Origin: Coriobacteriaceae bacterium
GTDB taxonomy: Bacteria; Bacillota_I; Bacilli_A; RFN20; CAG-826
DNA: 64,000 nucleotides
Direction: 5' to 3'
Assembly (NCBI GenBank): GCA_963612925.1
Contig: CAVDXG010000001.1
Coordinates: forward strand, 3,824-67,823
Shown: positions 8,681-47,712 of the stretch, piece by piece
Numbering within the stretch: the stretch's first letter is position 1
Layout of the letters: each line of letters begins with the position of its first letter
Translations under genes and position numbers: made by a program
The notes under the pieces: generated by a model
The model's database searches: none
Told to the model about the DNA's origin: nothing
What the model saw: only the letters and a program-made list of their open reading frames with translations

Positions 8681-10798
8681 TTAGATTTTCGATAAGACGA
8701 CTTTGTTATCTAGATAATCCACTTTGAATTTGTGTTTAGTGTCGACTGTGCCATCGATAATGGCTCTAGCGATGACAGTTTCAATCTCGCTTTGGATGAA
8801 GCGTTTGATTGGTCGAGCTCCAAATTCATAAGAGTAGGAAGAATCAAGAATATATTTCTTCAAGTTATCGCTGAATTCAAAGGAATAATAATTTTCTTTA
8901 AGTCGATTGTTCAAGATATTTAACATCTTCTCAACGACTTTATATTGGACATCCTTTGAAAGAGGATTGAAGTAGACAATTTCATCGATACGATTCAAGA
9001 ATTCTGGTCTAAAGGTGCGGTGGAGAAGTTCATTAACTTCATCCTTTTTGCCTTCTAGCAATAAATCACTTCCTAAATTTGAGGTCATGATAATAATCGT
9101 ATTCTTGAAGTCAATTACTCGGCCTTGAGAATCGGTTATTCGTCCATCATCAAGAATTTGTAAGAGCAAATTGAAGACTTCTGGATGCGCCTTTTCGATT
9201 TCATCGAATAAGACGATGCAATAAGGATTTCTTCGCACTTTTTCAGTGAGTTGTCCGCCTTCTTCATAACCAACATAGCCTGGTGGGGCTCCAATTAGTC
9301 TAGAAGTGCTATATTTCTCCATATATTCGCTCATGTCGATGCGGACCATGTGCGTTTCGCTGTCAAATAGCGCTTCCGCAAGAGCGCGAGCGACTTCGGT
9401 TTTGCCAACACCAGTCGGTCCTAAAAAGAGGAAGGAACCAATTGGTTTATTTTGATCTTTAATGCCTGCTCTTTGACGCAAGATTGCATCGCTAACTAAT
9501 GAAATAGCTTCATCTTGACCGATTACGCGTTTTTCAAGAATTTCTTTTAGATGCAGCACTTTTTCTTTATCACCTTGGGAAATTTTGCTCACCGGAATAT
9601 TGGTTTGCTTTGAAACGATCTTAGCAATTTCTTCTTCAGTGACTACTTCAGAGAGAATGTGATCGTGCTTTTCTTTATCTTCAATAACTGACAATTCTTT
9701 TTCTATCTCCGGAATTTCTTTGTATTGAATTTGACTTGCTCTTTCATAATTTGCTGAAGTGAAGGCATTATTTAGTTCGAATCGAGCTTTATCGAGTTTA
9801 ACTTTTAATTCCTTAGCTTTGCTAATTTCTTGTTTTTCGTCTTGCCATTTCTTGTAGATTTTATCTTGTTCAACTTTTAGGTTATCGAGATTTTCTACTA
9901 ATTTTTCAAGACGTTTTTTGCTTGAATCATCGCTTTCTTTTTCAAGAGCAACTCTTTCAATTTCTAACTGCTTAATTTTACGATTGAGTTCATCAAGTTC
10001 AGTTGGAGTTGATTCAATTTCCACTCGGATTGAAGCACAGGCTTCATCGATTAAATCGATGGCCTTATCTGGCAAAAATCGATTAGTTATATATCGATTA
10101 GATAATGTGACCGCGGCGATAATGGCATTATCAGTGATTTTCACGCCGTGATGAGATTCGAATTTTTCTTTTAAGCCTCTTAAAATAGAAATTGTATCTT
10201 CCACGGTTGGTTCGTTGACCATTACCGGCTGAAATCTTCTTTCGAGTGCGCGATCTTTTTCGATGTATTCGCGATATTCATTTAAGGTTGTCGCCCCGAT
10301 ACAATCGATTTCACCTCGAGCAAGCATTGGTTTAAGCATATTGCTAGCATCAAGTGCTCCATCAGCCTTTCCGGCTCCGACGATTAAATGGATTTCATCG
10401 ATGAAAAGAATGATTTTGCCTTCGCTAGCTTTAATTTTGTTTAAAACTGCTTTTAATCTTTCTTCGAATTCTCCACGATACTTTGCGCCCGCGACGAGTG
10501 CGCCCATATCCAATTCAAATATAGTTTTATTTTTTAGTGAAAGAGGAACATCATCTTTGACAATTCGTTCCGCTAGTCCTTCAAGAATGGCGGTTTTACC
10601 AACACCTGGTTCACCGATTAAGATGACATTGTTTTTATTTTTTCTAGCCAAAATTTCGATGATTTTTCTTATTTCATCATCGCGACCAATGACTGGATCA
10701 ATTTTGCCATCTCGAACTTGCTGAGTAACATCACGACCAAATTTTTCAAGGATATTTTCGTCTTTGGAATAATCTTCCATACCGTCCATATTGTTCAT
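8681..10798 (-). CDS. clpB: ClpB-type AAA+ disaggregase chaperone lacking the N-terminal domain
   Basis: Two AAA+ modules (GEPGVGKT and GPTGVGKT Walker A motifs) are separated by a long coiled-coil M-domain. At 705 aa there is no N-domain, as in mollicute ClpB. The RBS is AGGAGG. Confidence 0.9.
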
Positions 10799-20303: not shown

Positions 20304-22331
20304 ATGTTTGCTTTTCTAATATTTATTAGTTTTATTCTTGGTTTATTCTTCTTTAAAGGCAACATATTCGTTTCTGTTGCCTTTATTGTTATTTTTGTTA
20401 TTTATTTAATCTATCGCTTTAGAAATAAGAAAATTATCTATTTTTTATTAGCTTTAACAATAGGAATAATAATTCCTAAGATTGATGTAAGTTATAATCC
20501 AGAGGATAATTGCTACACAGGAATAGTAATAGAAAGCAAAGAAAATTATTTTATTTTTCAATCTCGATTTGAAAAATTTTATATTTACGAAGCTAACAAT
20601 GAACGAGAAATAGGCGATGTTTTACTTATCAAATCTAAGGCATATACATTTGAAAGCACCAGTTATGAATCGCGATTTGATTTTGCTTCATATTTAGAAG
20701 ATAAAGGTATAAAAAGACAGTTATATTCGAATAGCATCGAAGTGAAGCACGCATCTTTTCTTCGAAGGAAAAAGATAAAAAATAATTATTTAAATAGTTT
20801 CGATGAGCCATCAAAATCAATATTGTCCGCCCTTTTGTTTGGTGATCGGAATTATGATAGCGAAGCAATTGCATTGGCTAATGAATTAAATATTATTTTC
20901 CTTTTTTCAATAAGTGGAATATATCTTAGTTTCTTTATTAAAGTAGTTAAAAAAATTCTTAGCCTTTTTTTAAAAGAAGAGTTAGCAACATTGATTCCGA
21001 TATTATTTCTATTTCCTTTAATGTTATTTATTTTCCCAAAAGTCGGTCCAACAAGAGCATATTTAATGGCGGTTTTAACTCTTTTAAACAGAACATTATT
21101 AAAGCGAAAATATAGTCGCTTGACGCTAATATCTTCTTTAGGATTGACATTTTTATTAGTCGATTTTCATCTTGTTTATCAGGCTAGTTTTTATATCGGT
21201 TTTGCTATGTCGATATTTAGCCAATTCATAAGAAGACCTTTAAGAGGATTTTCGAAGGTTAAACGCCAATTATATTTTAGCCTTTTTGCCTTTGCTTTTA
21301 TTTTGCCTTTTAGTAGTTCGTTAGTGTATAAATGGTATATTTTTTCACCAATTTTCCAATATTTATTAACCCCTTTAAATGAGATTTATATTTTTCTAGC
21401 TATTTTCTCGTTTTATATTCATGTACCTTTTACTCATATTTTTCAGTTTTTATCGAACTTTATTGTTTTTTCAATGCGACAATTTCAAAGCATAAATTTT
21501 GCTATTTATTACAATTCAATTTTTAACTATTTTGTGCCTTTTTATTATTTTTGTTTTCTCTACATTGCCAATTTACTTGAGCAAAAAAGATATTACCATT
21601 TTAAACTAGGCTCTATTTCACTTATTTCGCTGCTACTTATTTGCTTTGTTCCTTTAAAAATTTATGTCACAAATTCAATCTACTTTATCAACGTTGGCCA
21701 AGGCGATTCCATCCTTATTCAGAATAAAAACAATATTGTTATGATTGACACTGGAGGAAATAAAAGTTTTGATATGGCTAGCGAGGTGCTCATCCCTTTT
21801 TTAAGAAGGCATGAAATAAAACATATTGACGCTCTTATAACTACTCACAACGACTTTGATCACGCTGGGGCTGCTTCTTCTTTAATATCCAACTTCAAAG
21901 TTAACAATTTTTATACTTGTTACGATTTTTCTTACTATGAAATCGGCGAAATTAAGCTTCAAAATATAAATCACTATACCGCTATAGACGATAATGATAA
22001 ATCGTTAGTCTTCAATCTCTCTTTTTTATCTTCTAAATGGCTTTTGATGGGCGATGCTAGCATAAATGTTGAGAATTATTTAATTAAAGAAAGCGTTGAT
22101 ATTGACTGCGATTATTTAAAAGTAGGGCATCACGGCAGTAATACATCGACATCTGATGCATTTTTGAAAGCATCGTCGCCAAAAGAAGCGATTATTTCTG
22201 TCGGCAAGAAAAATAGTTATAAGCATCCAAGTAAGGAAGTTATTGACCGACTCAATAAATACAATGTGAAAATTCGCCGGACCGATTTAGAAGGAACGAT
22301 TTGCTATAGCCAATATACTTTTTCTTATTAA
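20304..22331 (+). CDS. comEC: DNA-internalisation competence protein ComEC/Rec2
   Basis: Large polytopic core plus a C-terminal metallo-beta-lactamase domain (HNDFDHAG, VGHHGS). Confidence 0.85.
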   Translation: MFAFLIFISFILGLFFFKGNIFVSVAFIVIFVIYLIYRFRNKKIIYFLLALTIGIIIPKIDVSYNPEDNCYTGIVIESKENYFIFQSRFEKFYIYEANNEREIGDVLLIKSKAYTFESTSYESRFDFASYLEDKGIKRQLYSNSIEVKHASFLRRKKIKNNYLNSFDEPSKSILSALLFGDRNYDSEAIALANELNIIFLFSISGIYLSFFIKVVKKILSLFLKEELATLIPILFLFPLMLFIFPKVGPTRAYLMAVLTLLNRTLLKRKYSRLTLISSLGLTFLLVDFHLVYQASFYIGFAMSIFSQFIRRPLRGFSKVKRQLYFSLFAFAFILPFSSSLVYKWYIFSPIFQYLLTPLNEIYIFLAIFSFYIHVPFTHIFQFLSNFIVFSMRQFQSINFAIYYNSIFNYFVPFYYFCFLYIANLLEQKRYYHFKLGSISLISLLLICFVPLKIYVTNSIYFINVGQGDSILIQNKNNIVMIDTGGNKSFDMASEVLIPFLRRHEIKHIDALITTHNDFDHAGAASSLISNFKVNNFYTCYDFSYYEIGEIKLQNINHYTAIDDNDKSLVFNLSFLSSKWLLMGDASINVENYLIKESVDIDCDYLKVGHHGSNTSTSDAFLKASSPKEAIISVGKKNSYKHPSKEVIDRLNKYNVKIRRTDLEGTICYSQYTFSY

Positions 22332-23646: not shown

Positions 23647-25647
23647 TTATTTGCTTTTTTGCTTTCCTTTCAAAGAAAGGATTTCTTCGGTAAAATCGTT
23701 TACGCTTGTCAACAAAGCATATTTATCTTCTGGAATGTTGATCCCGAATTCTTTGTTAATTGTGTCTATTAATTCAACATAAGACATCGAGTCGCCACCT
23801 AAATTGTTAATCCAGTGATCATCATCGCCAACTTTAACTATCGGTAGAATTAGAATCTTCGCGAATATTTTTCGCACTTTTTTAACAATTGGTTCAACTT
23901 CTTCTTTTGTGTAACCATCGAACTTTTTAATTTTCTTTTTCATAGAAAAATCGACGAATAAATCAGCTTGTTCACTTAGGAACTGTTTGACTCTAAAGCG
24001 TTTAACTTTCATCGAAGCAGTTAAAGGCAAACGGTTTTTACTGATTAAGAATTTTTCAACTCTCTTTTCATTTGGCAGTGTGAGATTTATTTCTTCGCAA
24101 CGCTTTTTAATTGTTTCTAAATCTTCCTCACCGACATCGCTTGTAATTTCAATTACACAAGTAATAGCTTCGTGATGAGAGCCTTTTTTAATTCCGACTA
24201 CGCAAACTTTATTAACACCTGGAATGCCTTTGAAATAATCTTCGATTTCATCTGGATAAACATTTTCACCATTAGCGTTTATGATGACATCTTTGATTCG
24301 ACCTTTTAAATAGTAGTGGCCTGTTTCGTCAACAGAAGCGATATCTCCAGTATGCAAATAGCCATCTTCTAAAACTGGTTTTTGTTTGACTCCATCGATA
24401 ATTTCTAAGTAGTGAGTAATCGGGGATTTAATCAATAGTTCTCCGGTGTTAGGCTCGATTGCAGTGGTGCCAACAAGCTTATATTCAACTCCGTGAAGAG
24501 GATGACCAATGCTACCTTTTAAGCGCTGCTCGACATTCATTGACAATTCGACGGAAGTAACACCGACTTCAGTCATACCAAAGCCATTATAAAGAGGATA
24601 ACCAACTCCGTTAATTGTATTTAAAGTATCAAGCGAAAGATAACCGCCTCCCGAGATGCAATAACGGATCTTTTTACCTAAAAGTTGATTTTGTACAGCT
24701 GATAAAGTCATCGAATAGGCGCTGCTACCAGCTTCATCGCTAGAAATCTTTTTGGTTTGATAAGCAATCATTTTAGCCAACGCATCGACTTTTTTCTTGC
24801 CTTCTAGTTCTGCTTTTCTAGTGATTTGTTGCGCTAGAGAATCCCAAAATAGTGGCACACTATAGATGTGTGTAATTCCACATTTTTGCGAAACATTAGC
24901 AACTTCTTTAGGCGATAAGTCTTTGGTGAAAACGATGTTCTTGCCAAAGAATGTATACCATAAAAAGACCGCCACAAATCCAAAGATGTGGTGGAAAGGA
25001 ATGATGGCTAAAATATTGATTTCGCCTGGATACATGATATCTTTTGTCTCTTCTGGCATATCTAATGCGGCAGCAATTTGATGGCACATATTTGCTCCGT
25101 TATAGACCATCAGTTTTACATTGCCAGTTGTTCCGCTTGAACAGAAAATGATATCGTTAGCCCACTTTGTAGCAAATTTAAAGTTAACTTTTGTTTCCTT
25201 AAGCGCGGTGATGTTGACATTTACCACCTCGTAAGTAGAAATTTCATGGGTAATAATTGCTCCGGCGTGCGACTCTTTTAAAAGAATTTCAGTGTTTTCT
25301 TTTGGGAGTTTTGAGTCGATTAAAAATGGTACATAACCACTCATAAGAATTCCCCAGAAAATAAGTGGCCAGTCTGGACAATTGTGAAGTTTTAAGGCAA
25401 CAACTGAATCAAGAGGCAATGTTTTTAATTTTTCCGAAATTCTTGAAGCGAATTCGAAACAATATGAACGATAATGCTTGTATTTTATGGATATCGTTTT
25501 GCCTTTTTCATTGATCCAAGTGATGGCTTTTTCTTTTTTGTGCAAAGATGTTGCTTTGTTGAAAATATCTTGCATCGTCTTTGATGTTTTTAATAAATCT
25601 TCTGCCGATGAGAAGAATTGCTTTACTTGCTTATATTCGTTATACAT
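23647..25647 (-). CDS. Adenylate-forming enzyme (acyl-AMP/acyl-CoA ligase-like) fused to a C-terminal phosphopantetheine carrier domain
   Basis: AMP-binding core CSSGTTGNVK, GFGMTE and YLHTGDIASVDETGHYYLKGRIKD. The C-terminal ~80 aa carry LGGDSMSYVELI, a PP-binding Ser motif. The RBS is GAGGT. The gene stands alone. Confidence 0.75.
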   Translation of the reverse strand: MYNEYKQVKQFFSSAEDLLKTSKTMQDIFNKATSLHKKEKAITWINEKGKTISIKYKHYRSYCFEFASRISEKLKTLPLDSVVALKLHNCPDWPLIFWGILMSGYVPFLIDSKLPKENTEILLKESHAGAIITHEISTYEVVNVNITALKETKVNFKFATKWANDIIFCSSGTTGNVKLMVYNGANMCHQIAAALDMPEETKDIMYPGEINILAIIPFHHIFGFVAVFLWYTFFGKNIVFTKDLSPKEVANVSQKCGITHIYSVPLFWDSLAQQITRKAELEGKKKVDALAKMIAYQTKKISSDEAGSSAYSMTLSAVQNQLLGKKIRYCISGGGYLSLDTLNTINGVGYPLYNGFGMTEVGVTSVELSMNVEQRLKGSIGHPLHGVEYKLVGTTAIEPNTGELLIKSPITHYLEIIDGVKQKPVLEDGYLHTGDIASVDETGHYYLKGRIKDVIINANGENVYPDEIEDYFKGIPGVNKVCVVGIKKGSHHEAITCVIEITSDVGEEDLETIKKRCEEINLTLPNEKRVEKFLISKNRLPLTASMKVKRFRVKQFLSEQADLFVDFSMKKKIKKFDGYTKEEVEPIVKKVRKIFAKILILPIVKVGDDDHWINNLGGDSMSYVELIDTINKEFGINIPEDKYALLTSVNDFTEEILSLKGKQKSK

Positions 25648-39511: not shown

Positions 39512-41047
39512 ATGGCTTTAGTAGAACTTGTTGATGTTGATTTCAATTATTCTGATAAAGAGCTCTACCGTTCCTTATCTTTAAAAATTAATGATGGCGA
39601 ACATTGTGTTTTAGTTGGCGTCAACGGCTCAGGCAAAACTACTATTTTAGATTTGTTGACTAAAAAACTAACTCCTGATCGAGGAAAAGTTGTTTGGACG
39701 CCACATGTAACTTTTTCTTACTTAGATCAAAATTTAAAGATTGATCAGGATTTATTGACTCGTGAATATTTGCATCAAACATATGCTTCTTTATTTTTAA
39801 AGGAAGCAGAAATGGAAAAATATTATGAATTATCCGCGACTGATTTAGCTAACTATGAACGTCATCTCCTCAAAGCTCAAAAACTACAAGATGAACTCAT
39901 GCAAGTCGGCTTTTATTCGATTAAAGAAACCATCGATAAATTAATTGATGGATTAGGAATAAAACAAGATAGACTTGATATTTCACTTTCTAAACTATCA
40001 TCTGGTCAAAGAGAAAAGGTTTATTTAGCTAGAATGCTTTTAGAGAATAAAGATGTTTTATTTTTAGATGAGCCGACCAACTTTTTAGATGAATCACAAG
40101 TCGATTGGCTTGCTAATTATCTTATAAATTATCCAAAAGCCTTTTTGGTGGTTTCTCATGATCAATCCTTTTTAAGGAAAATAGCGACAGTGGTATTTTC
40201 TTTAGAAAATAAAACAATTGTTCGTTATCGCGGAAGTTATGATCATTTCTTAGAGCAAAATGCTTTAGATAAAAAGATGTATGAAAAGCGTTATATCGCT
40301 CAACAACGCTACATCAAAAACGAAGAAGACTTTATCCAAAAGCATATTGTGAGGGCGACATCCTCTAAAGCTGCTAAGAGCCGTAGAACTCGCTTAGAAC
40401 ATCTTGATCGACTTGAAACACCTGCAAAAGAAGAAGGCGTTGTTCATTTTGCCTTTCCATCTTTAAAAGCTACTGGTAAGGAAACATTAGTTGTTGATAA
40501 TCTTGAAATTGGCTACGACAATAAAAGCCTTCTTGATCCAATTTCATTTCGTCTACTTCGAAACGAAAAGATAGCTATCATCGGGAAAAATGGTGTCGGT
40601 AAGACCACATTTTTAAAGACCATTCTAGGTTTATTAAAGCCGATTGCAGGTAGCTATGAATGGTTTGAAAAAACAGTTATCAACTTCTATTCTCAGGAAG
40701 CGAAACTTGATTTGAATCAATCTCCTTTTGAACTTGTAAAAGAAAAATATCCATCTTTAACGAACACCGAAATTAGAACGCTTTTAGGCTCTTTTGGCCT
40801 CAGAAAAGAATTGGCTGTGCGCAAAATGAAAGAACTCAGTGGCGGTGAAATCACCAAAGCGCGCCTTGCTTTGATGAGCTTAAAGAAATCAAACTTTTTA
40901 ATCTTTGATGAGCCGACTAACCATTTAGATATAAAAGCAAAGGAAGCTCTATTTAAAGCGATCGATATATTTGATGGAGGCGTCATAATTGTCTCTCATG
41001 AAAAAGATTTTTATGATGGCTTGGTCGATTATGAAATTCATTTTTAA
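39512..41047 (+). CDS. ABC-F family ATPase (tandem ABC domains, no TMD)
   Basis: Two Walker A motifs (GVNGSGKTT and GKNGVGKTT) and two LSGG signatures (LSSGQ and LSGGE) with an inter-domain linker. 511 aa. Confidence 0.85.
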   Translation: MALVELVDVDFNYSDKELYRSLSLKINDGEHCVLVGVNGSGKTTILDLLTKKLTPDRGKVVWTPHVTFSYLDQNLKIDQDLLTREYLHQTYASLFLKEAEMEKYYELSATDLANYERHLLKAQKLQDELMQVGFYSIKETIDKLIDGLGIKQDRLDISLSKLSSGQREKVYLARMLLENKDVLFLDEPTNFLDESQVDWLANYLINYPKAFLVVSHDQSFLRKIATVVFSLENKTIVRYRGSYDHFLEQNALDKKMYEKRYIAQQRYIKNEEDFIQKHIVRATSSKAAKSRRTRLEHLDRLETPAKEEGVVHFAFPSLKATGKETLVVDNLEIGYDNKSLLDPISFRLLRNEKIAIIGKNGVGKTTFLKTILGLLKPIAGSYEWFEKTVINFYSQEAKLDLNQSPFELVKEKYPSLTNTEIRTLLGSFGLRKELAVRKMKELSGGEITKARLALMSLKKSNFLIFDEPTNHLDIKAKEALFKAIDIFDGGVIIVSHEKDFYDGLVDYEIHF

Positions 41048-42231: not shown

Positions 42232-43017
42232 ATGCACTTTTTCGAAACATTATCGCGTTATCAAAAAGGTGTTAATTTCCATAAAAGTGGAGATTATTAT
42301 TTTTATATAAATAATCGTCACTTATTTTCTAATATTGAGATGTATCATTTCCTATTGGACGCTAAAAACGAATTCGATGTCATCAGGGCTAACATTTTAA
42401 TTCAAGCTATTCAAAATAAAGAAAAATTCGAAAAAGCCATCATTTATGCTTTCAAAGAAAGCAATTTAAGAACTAATGAGGTAGCAAAATACATCGAGAA
42501 AGAAGTAGAAAATTTACCTTATTTAGTTGATGGAAACAATAAAATCTATATTCCGATTTTTTCTCGAAGTATGAATGTTTTATACAATTCACAATACGGA
42601 AAGCTTTTACGCGAGCCATATTCTAAACTCATCACTAATTTCAGCACTTCTTGCATCGACTTATTTGAAATGTATAATTTCGCTCTCTACGATTCATTGT
42701 TTACAAAATTTGTAACGATTTATCGCGATGACAAAGTGATGGTGGTCTATCATTTCGATTTTAAAACTGTCTATATCATCAACAACCAAGGTCGATTAGA
42801 TGCTCGCATTGCTCTATTTGATAAATATTTAAAAAATCCTGATGATATGCATATTATTGAACGAATTAAACCGGTAATTGAACGATATTTAGATTCTGAT
42901 CGCGAAGGAATGTATCAATCCTTGATTGCTAATAATTTAATTTCAGAAAAAATGATTTATAAAATCAAGCACAAAGAATATCGCTTCCAAAGAAAACTGA
43001 AAAGAAAATCAAAATGA
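42232..43017 (+). CDS. Hypothetical soluble protein inserted between rsmE and mtaB
   Basis: 261 aa with no TM helices or recognisable motifs. Overlaps mtaB by 4 nt. Confidence 0.5.
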   Translation: MHFFETLSRYQKGVNFHKSGDYYFYINNRHLFSNIEMYHFLLDAKNEFDVIRANILIQAIQNKEKFEKAIIYAFKESNLRTNEVAKYIEKEVENLPYLVDGNNKIYIPIFSRSMNVLYNSQYGKLLREPYSKLITNFSTSCIDLFEMYNFALYDSLFTKFVTIYRDDKVMVVYHFDFKTVYIINNQGRLDARIALFDKYLKNPDDMHIIERIKPVIERYLDSDREGMYQSLIANNLISEKMIYKIKHKEYRFQRKLKRKSK

Positions 43018-45364: not shown

Positions 45365-45538
45365 ATGCCTAAAACAGTCGTTCGCGAAAACGAAACATTA
45401 GATGAAGCTCTTCGACGTTTTAAACGTCAAGTAAACAAATCTGGCGTTCTTCTTGAAACACGTAAAAGAGAATATTATCTTAAAAAAGGCTTGAAGCGCA
45501 AACTCAAAAGCGAGATGGCCAGACGTAAATCTTATTAA
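45365..45538 (+). CDS. rpsU: 30S ribosomal protein S21 (missed by the ORF track, 57 aa)
   Basis: Translates to [57 protein letters not shown]. The RBS is AGGAAG. Confidence 0.9.
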
Positions 45539-45570
45539 TTAAAAAATTAAAAGAAAACTTGAAAAAAAGA

Positions 45571-45592
45571 GGAAGTACTTAGTACTTCCTTT
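45571..45592 (+). terminator. Terminator after rpsU
   Basis: GGAAGTAC-TTAG-TACTTCC hairpin followed by TTTAAATTTTATT. Confidence 0.5.
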
Positions 45593-45652
45593 AAATTTTA
45601 TTGACACTTTTTCACAAAAGGAGAATACAAATATATGAGGGGGTGAAAATTG

Positions 45653-46825
45653 ATGTCGAGATATTTCTGCTATCAAGCTAACGATTCTGATTGCGGGTTC
45701 GCTTGTTTGAAAATGATTTTGGCAATTAAATACAAGAACGAAGGTTGCCTAAATATTTCGAAGAAGAATAAAAGAACCAACTACTCTTTTGCTGATCTTA
45801 TAGCAATTGGTAAAGATTATGGGCTTTCATTGACTGGATATCGATACGAAGAAAAGGAAAAAGTTTCGGTAAAAACTCCATTTTTAGCTTTGCTGGAGCA
45901 AAACCATCTAGTTGTTGTAACTCATCTTAACTCTTTTAAGGTTACAGTACTTGACCCTTCCAAAGGTGAGCTAAGAATGACTAGAGCAGAGTTTAATAAA
46001 ATATGGAGTGGTGACACATTAGAGATAGAATCATTTAAAGCAGTGAAATTTAATTCGAGGCGTTTAAAAGTTACGCCTTTTCTCCCTAAATTGATAAATT
46101 TCATATTATCGATATCATCATTAGCCTCCTTACTCGTTGGATTTTTCTTCATCAAAGATGATGCATATATATTTATTCCTTTAATATTGTTAGGAGCATT
46201 TATTAGTATAGAATTAGTACAAAAATGGTATCTTATCAAACAATTAAATTTGTTTGATGAAAAATATACACTCCTATATTTCAAAGATATCAGCAGCGTT
46301 AATAGAGAAGAGTTAATTGAATATAGCGAATTCAAAAAGACTTATTTTTCTTTTGAAAGTAAAATCATTGTTTCTTTATGCGCGAGCATTGTAATCATCG
46401 TCGCTTTAATTATTAACGCTCCGATAAATGCTTTAGGTGTTTTATTCATTTTGCTTATGAATGTCGTCTCTAAAATTATTTTTAAGAATAAAGATGAAAA
46501 GCGCCTAAATATCATCAACGAAGCCGAAGATGGTCTTGTTAAAACTAAAAATGCTTCGGCGAATGACATATTAAAAATGTGCAATCTATCGAATAAATAT
46601 GCTTTTAATATCTCGTTAAGAAACTGTGTTTACTCCTTTTTAATACTTCTGTTAAGTTTCTTTGTGATGCTTGCAAATAAAATCGCCAGCGTCAACTTTT
46701 TGATTTTCCATTTTGGGCTTTATTATGTCTTAAACACTTATATCGATACTCTGGTTAGCTACAATGACCAGAAAAAAGAATACGAGAGAAGTAAAGCTAG
46801 ATTTCTAGATAAGTGTAATTTATAA
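45653..46825 (+). CDS. Peptidase C39-like domain fused to a ~6-TM domain, with no ABC ATPase
   Basis: The N-terminus YQANDSDCGFACLKMI carries the Q/C of the C39 motif, with later HLVVVTH and DPSKG providing the His and Asp. About six hydrophobic helices follow, and there are no Walker motifs. An RBS (GAGGGGG) and TTGACA at 45601 precede it. Confidence 0.7.
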   Translation: MSRYFCYQANDSDCGFACLKMILAIKYKNEGCLNISKKNKRTNYSFADLIAIGKDYGLSLTGYRYEEKEKVSVKTPFLALLEQNHLVVVTHLNSFKVTVLDPSKGELRMTRAEFNKIWSGDTLEIESFKAVKFNSRRLKVTPFLPKLINFILSISSLASLLVGFFFIKDDAYIFIPLILLGAFISIELVQKWYLIKQLNLFDEKYTLLYFKDISSVNREELIEYSEFKKTYFSFESKIIVSLCASIVIIVALIINAPINALGVLFILLMNVVSKIIFKNKDEKRLNIINEAEDGLVKTKNASANDILKMCNLSNKYAFNISLRNCVYSFLILLLSFFVMLANKIASVNFLIFHFGLYYVLNTYIDTLVSYNDQKKEYERSKARFLDKCNL

Positions 46826-46866
46826 ATAAATTTTAAAAATGTATGCTATAATCATTTTCCCAAATT

Positions 46867-47712
46867 ATGGAACTTGATTTTTCAAACCTCGGACCTCAAG
46901 ACTTAAACTCTTACGAAGAGACATTTTTTAAGTTAGCCCAAAAGGTGTTTTCGCATTTAAATGTGAATGATAATTATCTTATTGATGTCGCTATCGTAGA
47001 TAACAAATCTATCCAAGAAATCAATCGAGATTATCGAAACAAAGATTGCCCTACTGATGTGATTAGCTTTGCCTTTTTAGACGACAAAAAAGAAATATTC
47101 AACACAGATTGTCCCAATTCATTAGGGCAGATCATCATTTCTTATGAAAGGGCTAATGAACAAGCGAGCGCTTATAAGCACACCTTTATGCGCGAAATGT
47201 CATTTTTGTTCGTTCACGGTTTGCTTCATCTTTTGGGTTATGACCACATGAAAAAATGTGATGAATTAATTATGTTTTCTATACAAAATGAAATATTAGG
47301 AGGATTTAGAATGGAAAAAGAAGAACTAGTTGCTAAAGCAATTGAAGCACGAGAATTGGCTTATGTGCCTTATTCTCATTTTAAAGTGGGAGCTGTAATA
47401 CTTACAAAAGATGGACGCTTATTTTTAGGTGCGAACATCGAAAACTCCTCATATCCTTGCTGCATGTGCGCTGAAAGAAATGCAATCTTTAATGCTTATT
47501 TGCATGGCGTTAAAAAAGACGATATTGCGGCTTTAGCGTTATCGGCCGATACAGATGGGCCTTGTTCACCTTGTGGAGCTTGTCGTCAAGTTTTAAGCGA
47601 ACTCATGCCTAGCAATGCGCCTATCTTCATGTCAAATTTAAAAGGTGTAATCAAGGAAACAACTATCGCTGAACTTTTGCCATACGCTTTCTCGGAGGAT
47701 GATTTGAAATAA
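46867..47712 (+). CDS. ybeY: In-frame fusion of endoribonuclease YbeY and cytidine deaminase Cdd
   Basis: Residues 1-150 are YbeY (TDVISFAF, HGLLHLLGYDH). Residues ~153-281 are Cdd (CMCAERNA, PCSPCGACRQ). A TTAGGAGGATTTAGAATG Shine-Dalgarno plus ATG is retained in frame at the junction. Confidence 0.8.
   Translation: MELDFSNLGPQDLNSYEETFFKLAQKVFSHLNVNDNYLIDVAIVDNKSIQEINRDYRNKDCPTDVISFAFLDDKKEIFNTDCPNSLGQIIISYERANEQASAYKHTFMREMSFLFVHGLLHLLGYDHMKKCDELIMFSIQNEILGGFRMEKEELVAKAIEARELAYVPYSHFKVGAVILTKDGRLFLGANIENSSYPCCMCAERNAIFNAYLHGVKKDDIAALALSADTDGPCSPCGACRQVLSELMPSNAPIFMSNLKGVIKETTIAELLPYAFSEDDLK

Follow-up and report, generated by a model that had tools for sequence, protein, structure and literature searches.

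The locus

The window (the whole 64-kb stretch of DNA that was analysed) holds, between rpsU (45365-45538) upstream and ybeY downstream, a complete gene for a C39 peptidase joined to a six-helix membrane domain, here called the C39/TM protein; its parts and immediate neighbours are listed in Table 1. This placing agrees with a preliminary description of the same DNA, and the motifs quoted there (QANDSDCGFAC, HLVVVTH and DPSKG) are all found in the ORF. The length needs a small correction: from the ATG to the TAA stop at 46823-46825 the gene encodes 390 aa, and the 391 aa given earlier includes either the stop codon or an in-frame TTG start at 45650. The hairpin 3' of rpsU separates that gene from the C39/TM gene. 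Of the expression signals proposed earlier, the ribosome-binding site stands, as the GAGGGGG element lies 8 nt 5' of the ATG, but the promoter is not well supported: no good -10 hexamer follows the TTGACA at 16-18 nt, and the promoter scan made no call. The fused ybeY-cdd gene begins 41 nt past the C39/TM stop codon, with era and recO next. Two ORFs antisense to the C39/TM gene (45922-46335 and 46342-46584, minus strand) are taken to be chance ORFs in AT-rich sequence. An Rfam search of the window gave no match, and no rRNA.

Table 1. Features at and around the C39/TM gene (positions in the window)
Feature	Position	Strand	Basis
Terminator-like hairpin 3' of rpsU, 11-bp stem and T-run	45568..45592	+	terminator scan
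Upstream signals: TTGACA (45601-45606), Shine-Dalgarno-like GAGGGGG (45638-45644)	45601..45644	+	sequence
NBD-less C39 peptidase + 6-TM protein, complete gene, 390 aa	45653..46825	+	ORF list, sequence
Cytoplasmic C39 (double-glycine-type) cysteine peptidase, residues about 5-126	45665..46030	+	Pfam PF03412
Catalytic Gln8; Cys14; His85; Asp101	45674-45676; 45692-45694; 45905-45907; 45953-45955	+	alignment, conservation
TM domain, ABC-exporter (PCAT-type) fold, six long helices	46079..46813	+	AlphaFold, Foldseek, profile alignment
KARFLDKCNL C-terminal motif, conserved in the closer subfamily	46793..46822	+	alignments
ybeY fused in frame to cdd, 281 aa	46867..47712	+	Pfam YbeY residues 15-144, cytidine deaminase 150-248

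The peptidase domain

The N-terminal domain scores as C39, with 72.3 bits against a cutoff of 22 for Pfam Peptidase_C39 over residues 5-126, and it appears from its sequence to be catalytically intact, as had been proposed. Gln8, Cys14, His85 and Asp101 align to the catalytic positions of LahT and PCAT1 and are conserved in 98, 99, 98 and 99%, respectively, of 174 cluster representatives of the family. At Cys14 the remainder are gaps, so that every aligned member has the cysteine. The family profile matches the LahT peptidase (6mpz) with an E-value of 3e-17. Foldseek comparison of the model with 6mpz, 5xe8 and 7n87 finds the papain-like C39 fold (target-normalised TM-scores of 0.65-0.74, rmsd 3.1-4.6 A; 0.71-0.74 for 6mpz and 5xe8 alone). 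We strongly infer that the peptidase is active, and as PCAT1 cleaves without ATP, it is very likely, by analogy, that the protein still cleaves leaders of the double-glycine type.

The membrane domain

The AlphaFold model of the C39/TM protein (pLDDT 84.6) has helices at residues 143-165, 174-209, 218-255, 259-297, 303-341 and 347-387, five of the six being 36-41 residues long, and the positive-inside rule fits a topology with both termini inside. The top 13 Foldseek matches are all chains of PCAT1, aligned over peptidase and membrane domain with E-values of 5e-14 to 1e-9 and query-normalised TM-scores of 0.43-0.60 over the full query length. Generic ABC exporter membrane domains and the NBD-less SbmA come lower in the ranking (E about 1e-3 to 1e-2). 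The family profile likewise aligns to residues 12-423 of PCAT1. None of the Pfam ABC_membrane models reaches threshold on the window protein, the best being ABC_membrane_3 with an E-value of 0.15. The domain is about 50-70 residues shorter than that of PCAT1, and the cavity may therefore be too small for folded cargo.

Four polar residues of the domain, D202, K228, N255 and E292, are conserved in 93-98% of the 174 representatives. The conserved charged residues sit in the cytoplasmic extensions of the helices and not in the membrane core, and the conserved N255 and N259 lie at the outer turn between TM3 and TM4. ABC exporters touch their NBDs through cytoplasmic loop tips. The corresponding tips here, residues 211-220 and 301-310, have conservation scores of 0.26 and 0.23, two of the three lowest block values in the protein, and ICL2 forms no helix in the model. 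The protein ends within the cytoplasmic extension of TM6, at the point where a full-length transporter would enter its ATPase domain. Conservation of the KARFLDKCNL motif at this end does not extend to the distant half of the family; a pattern similarity with protein P0197 suggests that the motif may be equivalent to a pre-NBD linker.

Family size, conservation and selection

An exhaustive profile search recovered 359 clusters (50% identity) at E<=1e-30, and the best 150 of these were matched essentially end to end, with lengths of 377-415 aa except for two shorter members (302 and 355 aa). No member of about 700 aa is found among these 150. The ORF is intact in 26 of 26 species in a scan of a genome collection with a 10-sequence family alignment. 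In two independent close pairs, dN/dS is 0.10-0.13 overall, 0.05-0.08 for the peptidase and 0.13-0.16 for the membrane domain. Neither Pfam nor NCBIfam has a dedicated model for the family, whose members are currently labelled only 'C39 domain-containing' or 'hypothetical', and no description of an NBD-less PCAT family was found in the literature.

The missing ATPase and substrate

The earlier observation that the protein stops after about six TM helices without an ABC ATPase is confirmed by the predicted helices and by the ORF itself, in which there is no Pfam ABC_tran match, no Walker A or Walker B and no LSGGQ motif. The accompanying claim that no NBD gene lies nearby holds only in part. 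An ABC ATPase gene with two Walker A and two signature motifs is present 4.6 kb upstream (39512-41047), but its homologue in the related locus L001 carries ABC_tran_Xtn, the linker that characterises soluble ABC-F proteins, and no partner ATPase was found. The gene is missing from the neighbourhood in most relatives and present in the closest subclade only. With two NBDs, an ABC-F linker in the homologue and no conserved place in the neighbourhood, it was rejected as the lost ATPase. A scan for Walker A and signature motifs around the gene in 26 or more species, covering about 10 kb on each side in the relatives, found only this double-NBD protein, and a fused or adjacent ATPase occurs in none of the best 150 of the 359 family clusters.

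The search for a substrate had a similar outcome. No ORF with a double-glycine leader was found in the window, nor within about 10 kb in the flanks of 26 or more relatives (L001-L031), in line with the earlier remark that no substrate gene is adjacent. Immunity, modification, accessory and regulator genes of the kind found in PCAT clusters are also missing from the window and from the relatives' flanks; the classic exporter cluster around protein P0280 contrasts with this bare locus. Additional genes at two loci were considered as partners and rejected, since none of them encodes an ATPase or a leader peptide. Next to the family member, L029 has genes for a membrane protein and a protein resembling lipoproteins, and L025 has three minus-strand ORFs, which by eye look like a membrane-bound PP2C/SpoIIE-type phosphatase, an anti-sigma-kinase-like protein and a STAS-like protein.

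Synteny and the mycoplasma counterpart

Wherever a fetched locus is long enough for the comparison, the C39/TM gene is immediately followed by ybeY-cdd-era-recO, and the order [C39/TM]-ybeY-cdd-era-recO-glyQS-dnaG-sigA is kept in 26 of 26 species-level loci, down to 23-28% identity of the protein. In Mesomycoplasma ovipneumoniae (L035) and M. conjunctivae (L036) the same slot is filled by a full-length C39-ABC transporter of 679 and 678 aa, respectively, belonging to the Mbov_0121 family (NF045998), followed by an ORF of 125-127 aa and then ybeY-cdd-era. The 127-aa ORF was considered as the substrate and rejected. Lacking a double-glycine leader and with a TM helix at its N-terminus, its product resembles an accessory subunit more closely.

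A 679-aa C39-ABC transporter of the Mbov_0121 family is also the single non-family protein reached by the profile search. Alignment of the two with hhalign gives a probability of 97.6% over the peptidase and TM1-TM2, and the NF045998 model scores 48.1 bits on the window protein against a cutoff of 500, over residues 8-165 only. As homology is detectable only through TM2, orthology rests mainly on position, and the positional criterion, a slot upstream of ybeY-cdd-era, is our own and lies outside the curated definition of NF045998. Searches with the mycoplasma transporter brought up no intermediate forms; most of the matches were near-identical entries from M. ovipneumoniae. The term 'orphan' applied to the gene in the preliminary description is misleading, as the gene is the positional counterpart of a full-length transporter.

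In M. genitalium, where MG_390 is annotated as an ABC transporter of the Mbov_0121 type, we take MG_388 and MG_387 to be ybeY and era; the direct evidence for the shared slot is that of the two Mesomycoplasma genomes. The sigma-20 recombination regulon includes MG_390, and deleting this gene cuts recombination-dependent transformation ten-fold; the coordinates given in that study fit a contiguous MG_390-389-388-387 block (PMC4446450). Candidatus Fiminaster (L026), whose protein is 27% identical to that of the window, is the sole member of the C39/TM family with a published GTDB placement, in the order RFN20, family CAG-826 (PMC8957277). RFN20 is related to the Mycoplasmatales, with which it has a common inferred ancestral node (PMC10868615). 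We take the C39/TM gene to be a core gene inherited vertically in an uncultured lineage of gut Bacilli with reduced genomes, RFN20-like on the basis of this one anchoring genome and of the shared gene order. Some families of this RFN20-like lineage are predicted to lack peptidoglycan.

Relation to known systems

The Mbov_0121 proteins resemble the window protein in their N-terminal C39 domain with intact Gln, Cys, His and Asp, in sequence through TM2, in their slot in the two Mesomycoplasma species and in their hosts, which are related genome-reduced Bacilli. They differ in being full-length proteins that match ABC_membrane and ABC_tran of Pfam and contain Walker A and signature motifs, and in the single-pass membrane protein encoded by the next gene, which the window lacks. 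The best structural match for both domains is PCAT1 of Clostridium thermocellum, and the catalytic residues and predicted topology are those of the AMS/PCAT exporters (ComA, LagD and LahT). Unlike these, the window protein has a shortened membrane domain, no ATPase domain and no adjacent precursor peptide gene. It thus has the C39 domain and six helices of a PCAT but neither the NBD nor the cognate precursor.

SbmA, a proton-driven transporter structurally related to the TMDs of ABC transporters (PMC8442886, PMC13316013), shares with the window protein an ABC-exporter-like fold without an ATPase, the handling of peptides and a similar size (388 aa in 9g3d). The fold match is weak (E 7e-3, ranked 45th), no better than that of generic ABC exporters, and there is no sequence match. 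SbmA/BacA also lacks a peptidase, and it is an importer, not an exporter. It serves as an analogy of mechanism, and the window protein is not assigned to the SLiPT class. The CLD found in HlyB and other ABC transporters of type 1 secretion is likewise a C39 fold N-terminal to an ABC-exporter TMD (HlyB structures match in Foldseek at E 2e-8), but HlyB has an ATPase. CLDs have no proteolytic activity (PMC6363468), whereas the window protein keeps Cys14 and so is not a non-catalytic CLD.

Proposed function and its alternatives

What the data above show is the architecture and fold of the protein, its conservation, purifying selection on it, the synteny, and a position equivalent to that of the mycoplasma transporter. 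Our reading of the family is that of a lineage-wide, NBD-less derivative of a mycoplasma-type PCAT. The explanation we prefer, at a probability of roughly 0.55, is that it is a selectively maintained PCAT descendant in which a competent C39 domain and a six-helix membrane domain carry out leader cleavage and cargo release without ATP. Of the options raised in the preliminary description, a non-ABC protease or translocator is the one favoured by the evidence. PCAT1 recruits and cleaves its substrate when ATP-free and inward-facing, and its TM core is needed for cleavage (PMC6959990). Like other ABC exporters, the C39/TM protein would most probably form a homodimer in the membrane, and its peptidase would dock where the helical bundle opens to the cytoplasm, as in this state of PCAT1. 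The docked peptidase would bind and cleave a double-glycine-type leader on a substrate encoded elsewhere in the genome. The freed cargo would then pass into or across the membrane domain with no ATP spent, by an alternating access that might be facilitated or, as in SbmA, driven by the proton-motive force. We are less sure of the dimer, of translocation without ATP and of what the substrate is than of the activity of the peptidase. A more specific version, in which the PCAT has turned into a secondary or facilitative transporter that processes and exports a housekeeping peptide or protein of double-glycine type, in a role descended from that of MG_390-type transporters, is put forward tentatively and considered rather unlikely. 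The conserved charges, lying in cytoplasmic extensions, offer no obvious proton-coupling site as expected for a proton-driven transporter.

The six helices might instead serve only to position and activate the peptidase, in a membrane-tethered maturation or regulatory protease that transports nothing. Its products would stay in the cytoplasm or membrane, and its substrate would not be a secreted peptide but a protein of the cytoplasm or the membrane. This is conceivable but doubtful. It agrees with the ATP-free, core-dependent cleavage by PCAT1 (PMC6959990) and with the absence of the energy module, and the highest conservation of the membrane domain (D202, K228 and E292) falls where the peptidase would dock; the gene also lies in a housekeeping neighbourhood that contains no peptide gene. 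Yet one helix would be enough as an anchor, and all six are kept in 359 clusters under the purifying selection noted above for the membrane domain. Conservation of N255 and N259 suggests that the outer face matters as well, and the mycoplasma counterpart retains the full transport machine. Less probable again is a split exporter, a conventional ATP-driven PCAT whose ATPase has become a stand-alone subunit encoded elsewhere in the genome. Fold and topology are indeed those of a PCAT minus its last domain, the protein ends where the NBD would begin, and the inspection of relatives spanned only about 10 kb per side. Within that span, however, no ATPase was found apart from the double-NBD protein of the closest subclade, and none is fused or adjacent in the best 150 of the 359 clusters; furthermore, conservation is poor at the loop tips, where the coupling helices would be, ICL2 lacks its helix in the model and the helices are shortened relative to PCAT1.

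The suggestion that the gene is a decaying remnant, or an assembly artefact, of a full-length exporter of a bacteriocin or competence peptide can be regarded as refuted. Individual strains of M. ovipneumoniae do sporadically carry the full-length gene in truncated or split form (P0277, of 434 aa, and P0278 and P0274, which lack the peptidase). In the C39/TM family, in contrast, the form of about 390 aa is fixed in the best 150 of the 359 clusters, the two shorter members aside, the catalytic residues are 98-99% conserved, dN/dS is about 0.1, the ORF is intact in all 26 species and synteny persists to 23% identity. As the gap between the stop codon and ybeY is only 41 nt, no correction of a sequencing error can give a full-length transporter, and a protein 100% identical to that of the window (P0001) is found in an independent public record.

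Implications

PCATs are ATP-driven machines in which cleavage of the leader is strictly coupled to ATP-powered export. Here, a large and old family under purifying selection has discarded the motor and kept an intact protease together with the six helices of the exporter, so the membrane domain must have a use that needs no ATP. The family offers a natural minimal system for three questions: what the core of a PCAT contributes to cleavage, whether the PCAT fold can use another source of energy, as SbmA does, and what the housekeeping substrate is of the MG_390-type transporters of mycoplasmas, the position at ybeY/era being common to both lineages. As there is no dedicated Pfam or NCBIfam model, a definition of the family would improve the annotation of metagenome-assembled genomes of gut and rumen Bacilli. 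If the protein does prove to be an ATP-independent translocator, it would be the second independent case, after SbmA, of an ABC-exporter fold working without an ATPase, and the first to keep an attached enzyme domain.

A C39 peptidase with an exporter-type membrane domain and no ATPase

The C39/TM gene encodes 390 aa, and its N-terminal domain is a C39 peptidase, as the preliminary description had proposed: residues 5–126 reach 72.3 bits with the Pfam model Peptidase_C39, whose cutoff is 22, and the three catalytic motifs quoted there are present in the ORF. A Pfam search of the 390 aa detected no ABC ATPase domain, and the sole ABC membrane model hinted at, ABC_membrane_3, is sub-threshold (E 0.15). 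NCBIfam models for full-length peptidase–ABC proteins (the NHLP type and the mycoplasma ‘Mbov_0121’ type) match the N-terminal 160–170 residues only. The gene lies between rpsU and ybeY, as described earlier. As ybeY starts only 41 nt after the stop codon, no sequencing-error correction could restore a full-length transporter, an origin considered in that description.

Coordinates of features in the window and in related loci
Feature	Location	Strand	Remarks
ComEC-type gene and adenylation enzyme gene	window 20304-22331 and 23647-25647	+ and -	listed together
Double-NBD gene	window 39512-41047		511 aa
261-aa protein gene	window 42232-43017	+	between rsmE and mtaB; no Pfam match
rpsU	window 45365-45538		upstream of C39/TM gene
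Terminator-like hairpin	window 45568-45592		between rpsU and C39/TM gene
C39/TM gene	window 45653 (ATG) to 46823-46825 (TAA)	+	in-frame TTG at 45650
Extended -10 element	window 46844-46852		perfect TGcTATAAT
ybeY-cdd ORF	window 46867-47712	+	281 aa; ybeY ATG at 46867
Insertion, locus L025	7472-9743	-	three ORFs (519, 143, 103 aa) between rpsU and C39/TM
Insertion, locus L029	11263-12543		C39/TM and ybeY separated by genes for a lipoprotein-like protein of 175 aa (minus strand) and a membrane protein of 189 aa
125-127-aa protein gene	L035 (M. ovipneumoniae) 10012-10395; L036 (M. conjunctivae) 7018-7395		between C39-ABC transporter and ybeY

AlphaFold, given the family alignment, yields a confident model (mean pLDDT 84.6, pTM 0.74), in which an alpha/beta peptidase domain precedes six helices; five of these are 36–41 residues long. 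The top 13 Foldseek matches in the PDB are all to the peptidase-containing ABC transporter (PCAT) PCAT1, and their alignments extend across the peptidase and the membrane domain (E 5e-14 to 1e-9); inward-facing states reach a query-normalised TM of about 0.6. Next comes HlyB, then generic ABC-exporter membrane domains and SbmA, which has no ATPase domain (NBD), at E about 1e-3 to 1e-2. The family profile alignment spans PCAT1 residues 12–423. The PCAT1 membrane domain is roughly 50–70 residues longer. Positive residues (Lys+Arg) are concentrated in the segments predicted to be cytoplasmic, which hold 6, 7 and 6, and are scarce in the outer turns, which hold 1, 0 and 1; this fits an N-in/C-in topology with a cytoplasmic peptidase.

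Conservation of the family

A first search found 33 relatives, of 388–403 aa except for one N-terminally truncated entry, with identity down to 23%. When 1.84 billion cluster representatives were searched exhaustively with a profile, 359 clusters matched at E<=1e-30. The best 150 of these match essentially end to end and are 377–415 aa long, apart from two of 302 and 355 aa; none approaches 700 aa. Among 174 cluster representatives the catalytic residues are almost invariant (Gln8 98%, Cys14 99%, His85 98%, Asp101 99%), Cys14 being present in every aligned, non-gap sequence. Polar residues of the membrane domain are also conserved (D202 98%, K228 94%, N255 95%, E292 93%). In the predicted topology D202 (TM2), K228 (TM3) and E292 (TM4) lie 5–11 residues past the edge of the membrane, and we infer that they make up the docking or entry region.

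Two independent close pairs give an overall dN/dS of 0.10–0.13 (peptidase 0.05–0.08, membrane domain 0.13–0.16), so that purifying selection acts on both halves. The earlier suggestion of a decaying exporter fails against the fixed length, the conserved catalytic residues and this dN/dS; decay or artefact is excluded, with a negligible residual probability.

Gene order and hosts

The order (deoC-rpsU)-[C39/TM]-ybeY-cdd-era-recO-glyQS-dnaG-sigA is shared by 26 of 26 species-level loci in the genome collection and by all other fetched loci of sufficient length. Even at 23–28% identity the gene adjoins ybeY, with dnaJ rather than rpsU upstream, and the ybeY link persists in the lowest-scoring of the best 150 clusters. 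By eye, the ORFs inserted in L025 read as a membrane-bound PP2C/SpoIIE-type phosphatase, an anti-sigma-kinase-like protein and a STAS-like protein. The 261-aa protein is kept in place in many, not all, related loci.

Family hosts are all uncultured MAGs from gut, rumen or digester with inconsistent NCBI labels. Those with L006, L007, L009 and L013 are titled Bacteroidaceae, Lachnospiraceae, Staphylococcaceae or Oscillospiraceae; their loci are Bacilli-type and share one 15-gene order with the rest, and the titles look unreliable. The lineage is anchored by the one family genome whose placement has been published: Ca. Fiminaster equi (L026) belongs to GTDB order RFN20, family CAG-826 (PMC8957277). 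Peptidoglycan deficiency is predicted for CAG-826, and RFN20 is described as a relation of Mycoplasmatales, the two sharing an inferred ancestral node (PMC10868615).

In the window ybeY and cdd (cytidine deaminase) form one ORF, with YbeY at residues 15–144 and the deaminase at 150–248; in more distant relatives and in mycoplasmas they are separate neighbouring genes, whose products are about 150 and 133 aa long. Start positions from tblastn suggest that the fusion is common to the closest subclade (L006-L009, L011, L012, L015, L019, L031). The extended -10 element lies inside the gap after the C39/TM stop, 14 nt from the ybeY ATG, with no Shine-Dalgarno sequence between. Besides read-through, ybeY might be expressed from a very short-leadered or leaderless transcript.

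The mycoplasma counterpart

Outside the family the profile search reached one protein only, a 679-aa Mbov_0121-family C39-ABC transporter of Mesomycoplasma ovipneumoniae (hhalign probability 97.6%, over the peptidase and TM1-TM2). In M. ovipneumoniae and M. conjunctivae the order is full-length transporter, 125–127-aa single-pass membrane protein, ybeY-cdd-era, and the shared slot makes the NBD-less gene the positional counterpart of the mycoplasma transporter. On the simplest history, the ATPase and the small membrane protein were lost in situ within the family's lineage. In some M. ovipneumoniae strains the transporter is split or truncated (P0277, P0278, P0274), the pieces being of 434 aa with peptidase and membrane part, and of 432 and 560 aa without peptidase; this sporadic truncation contrasts with a family fixed at 390 aa.

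The small protein, absent from the window, has its single TM helix at the N-terminus and matches no Pfam model, and its gene slightly overlaps that of the transporter; it may be an unrecognised accessory subunit. MG_389 of M. genitalium occupies its slot. MG_388 and MG_387 we take to be ybeY and era. Published coordinates are consistent with this (PMC4446450). MG_390, annotated as an ABC transporter, is non-essential and co-transcribed with MG_389. The alternative sigma factor sigma-20 (MG428) induces MG_390, and recombination-dependent transformation drops ten-fold when the gene is deleted (PMC4446450). Because the mycoplasma counterpart sits in a recombination/gene-transfer regulon, the window's ComEC-type DNA-uptake channel (Competence and metallo-beta-lactamase domains) is of interest. 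Also in the window is the gene for a 666-aa protein that joins an adenylation enzyme to a carrier-protein domain (AMP-binding and PP-binding).

Possible mechanism

A split transporter, its ATPase encoded at an unlinked site, is improbable. The coupling helices of ABC exporters, at the cytoplasmic loop tips, grip the ATPase; both tips here are among the three blocks of the protein with the lowest conservation (174 cluster representatives). Scanning the window and L001-L031 for Walker A plus signature motifs turned up only the 511-aa double-NBD protein, which is limited to the closest subclade and whose L001 homologue has an ABC-F linker domain. The preliminary statement that no NBD gene lies nearby thus holds but for this one gene. 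The lack of a double-glycine-leader peptide gene was borne out, strict and loose scans of small ORFs in the window and the relatives' loci giving no credible candidate. In contrast, P0280, a genuine bacteriocin-type PCAT used for comparison, lies beside a YcaO gene, a 49-aa ORF and a LytTR regulator.

In PCAT1 the substrate is recruited and its leader cleaved in the ATP-free, inward-facing state, the peptidase docks on the lateral opening, cleavage requires the transmembrane core, and the pathway turns outward only upon subsequent ATP binding (PMC6959990). An NBD-less version therefore retains all that cleavage needs and is without the known power stroke. A membrane-activated protease without transport is a minority reading, less doubtful than the split transporter. 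In the preferred reading, cleavage with ATP-independent export, the C39/TM protein would rest inward-facing with its peptidase docked and would cut a double-glycine-type leader off a substrate encoded at an unlinked site; the cargo would then leave through the helical bundle, either by facilitated release or driven by the proton-motive force. The same fold can run as a proton-driven secondary transporter in SbmA (PMC8442886, PMC13316013).

A literature search found no description of a catalytically intact C39 peptidase joined to an exporter-type membrane domain without an ATPase as a core gene. The C39/TM protein, searched against Pfam and NCBIfam, has no dedicated family model in either, and members are labelled only ‘C39 domain-containing’ or ‘hypothetical’ at source. 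The parts are known; to judge from that search their combination is new, and an order-level lineage keeps it as a fixed core gene at the position that the transporter has in mycoplasmas.
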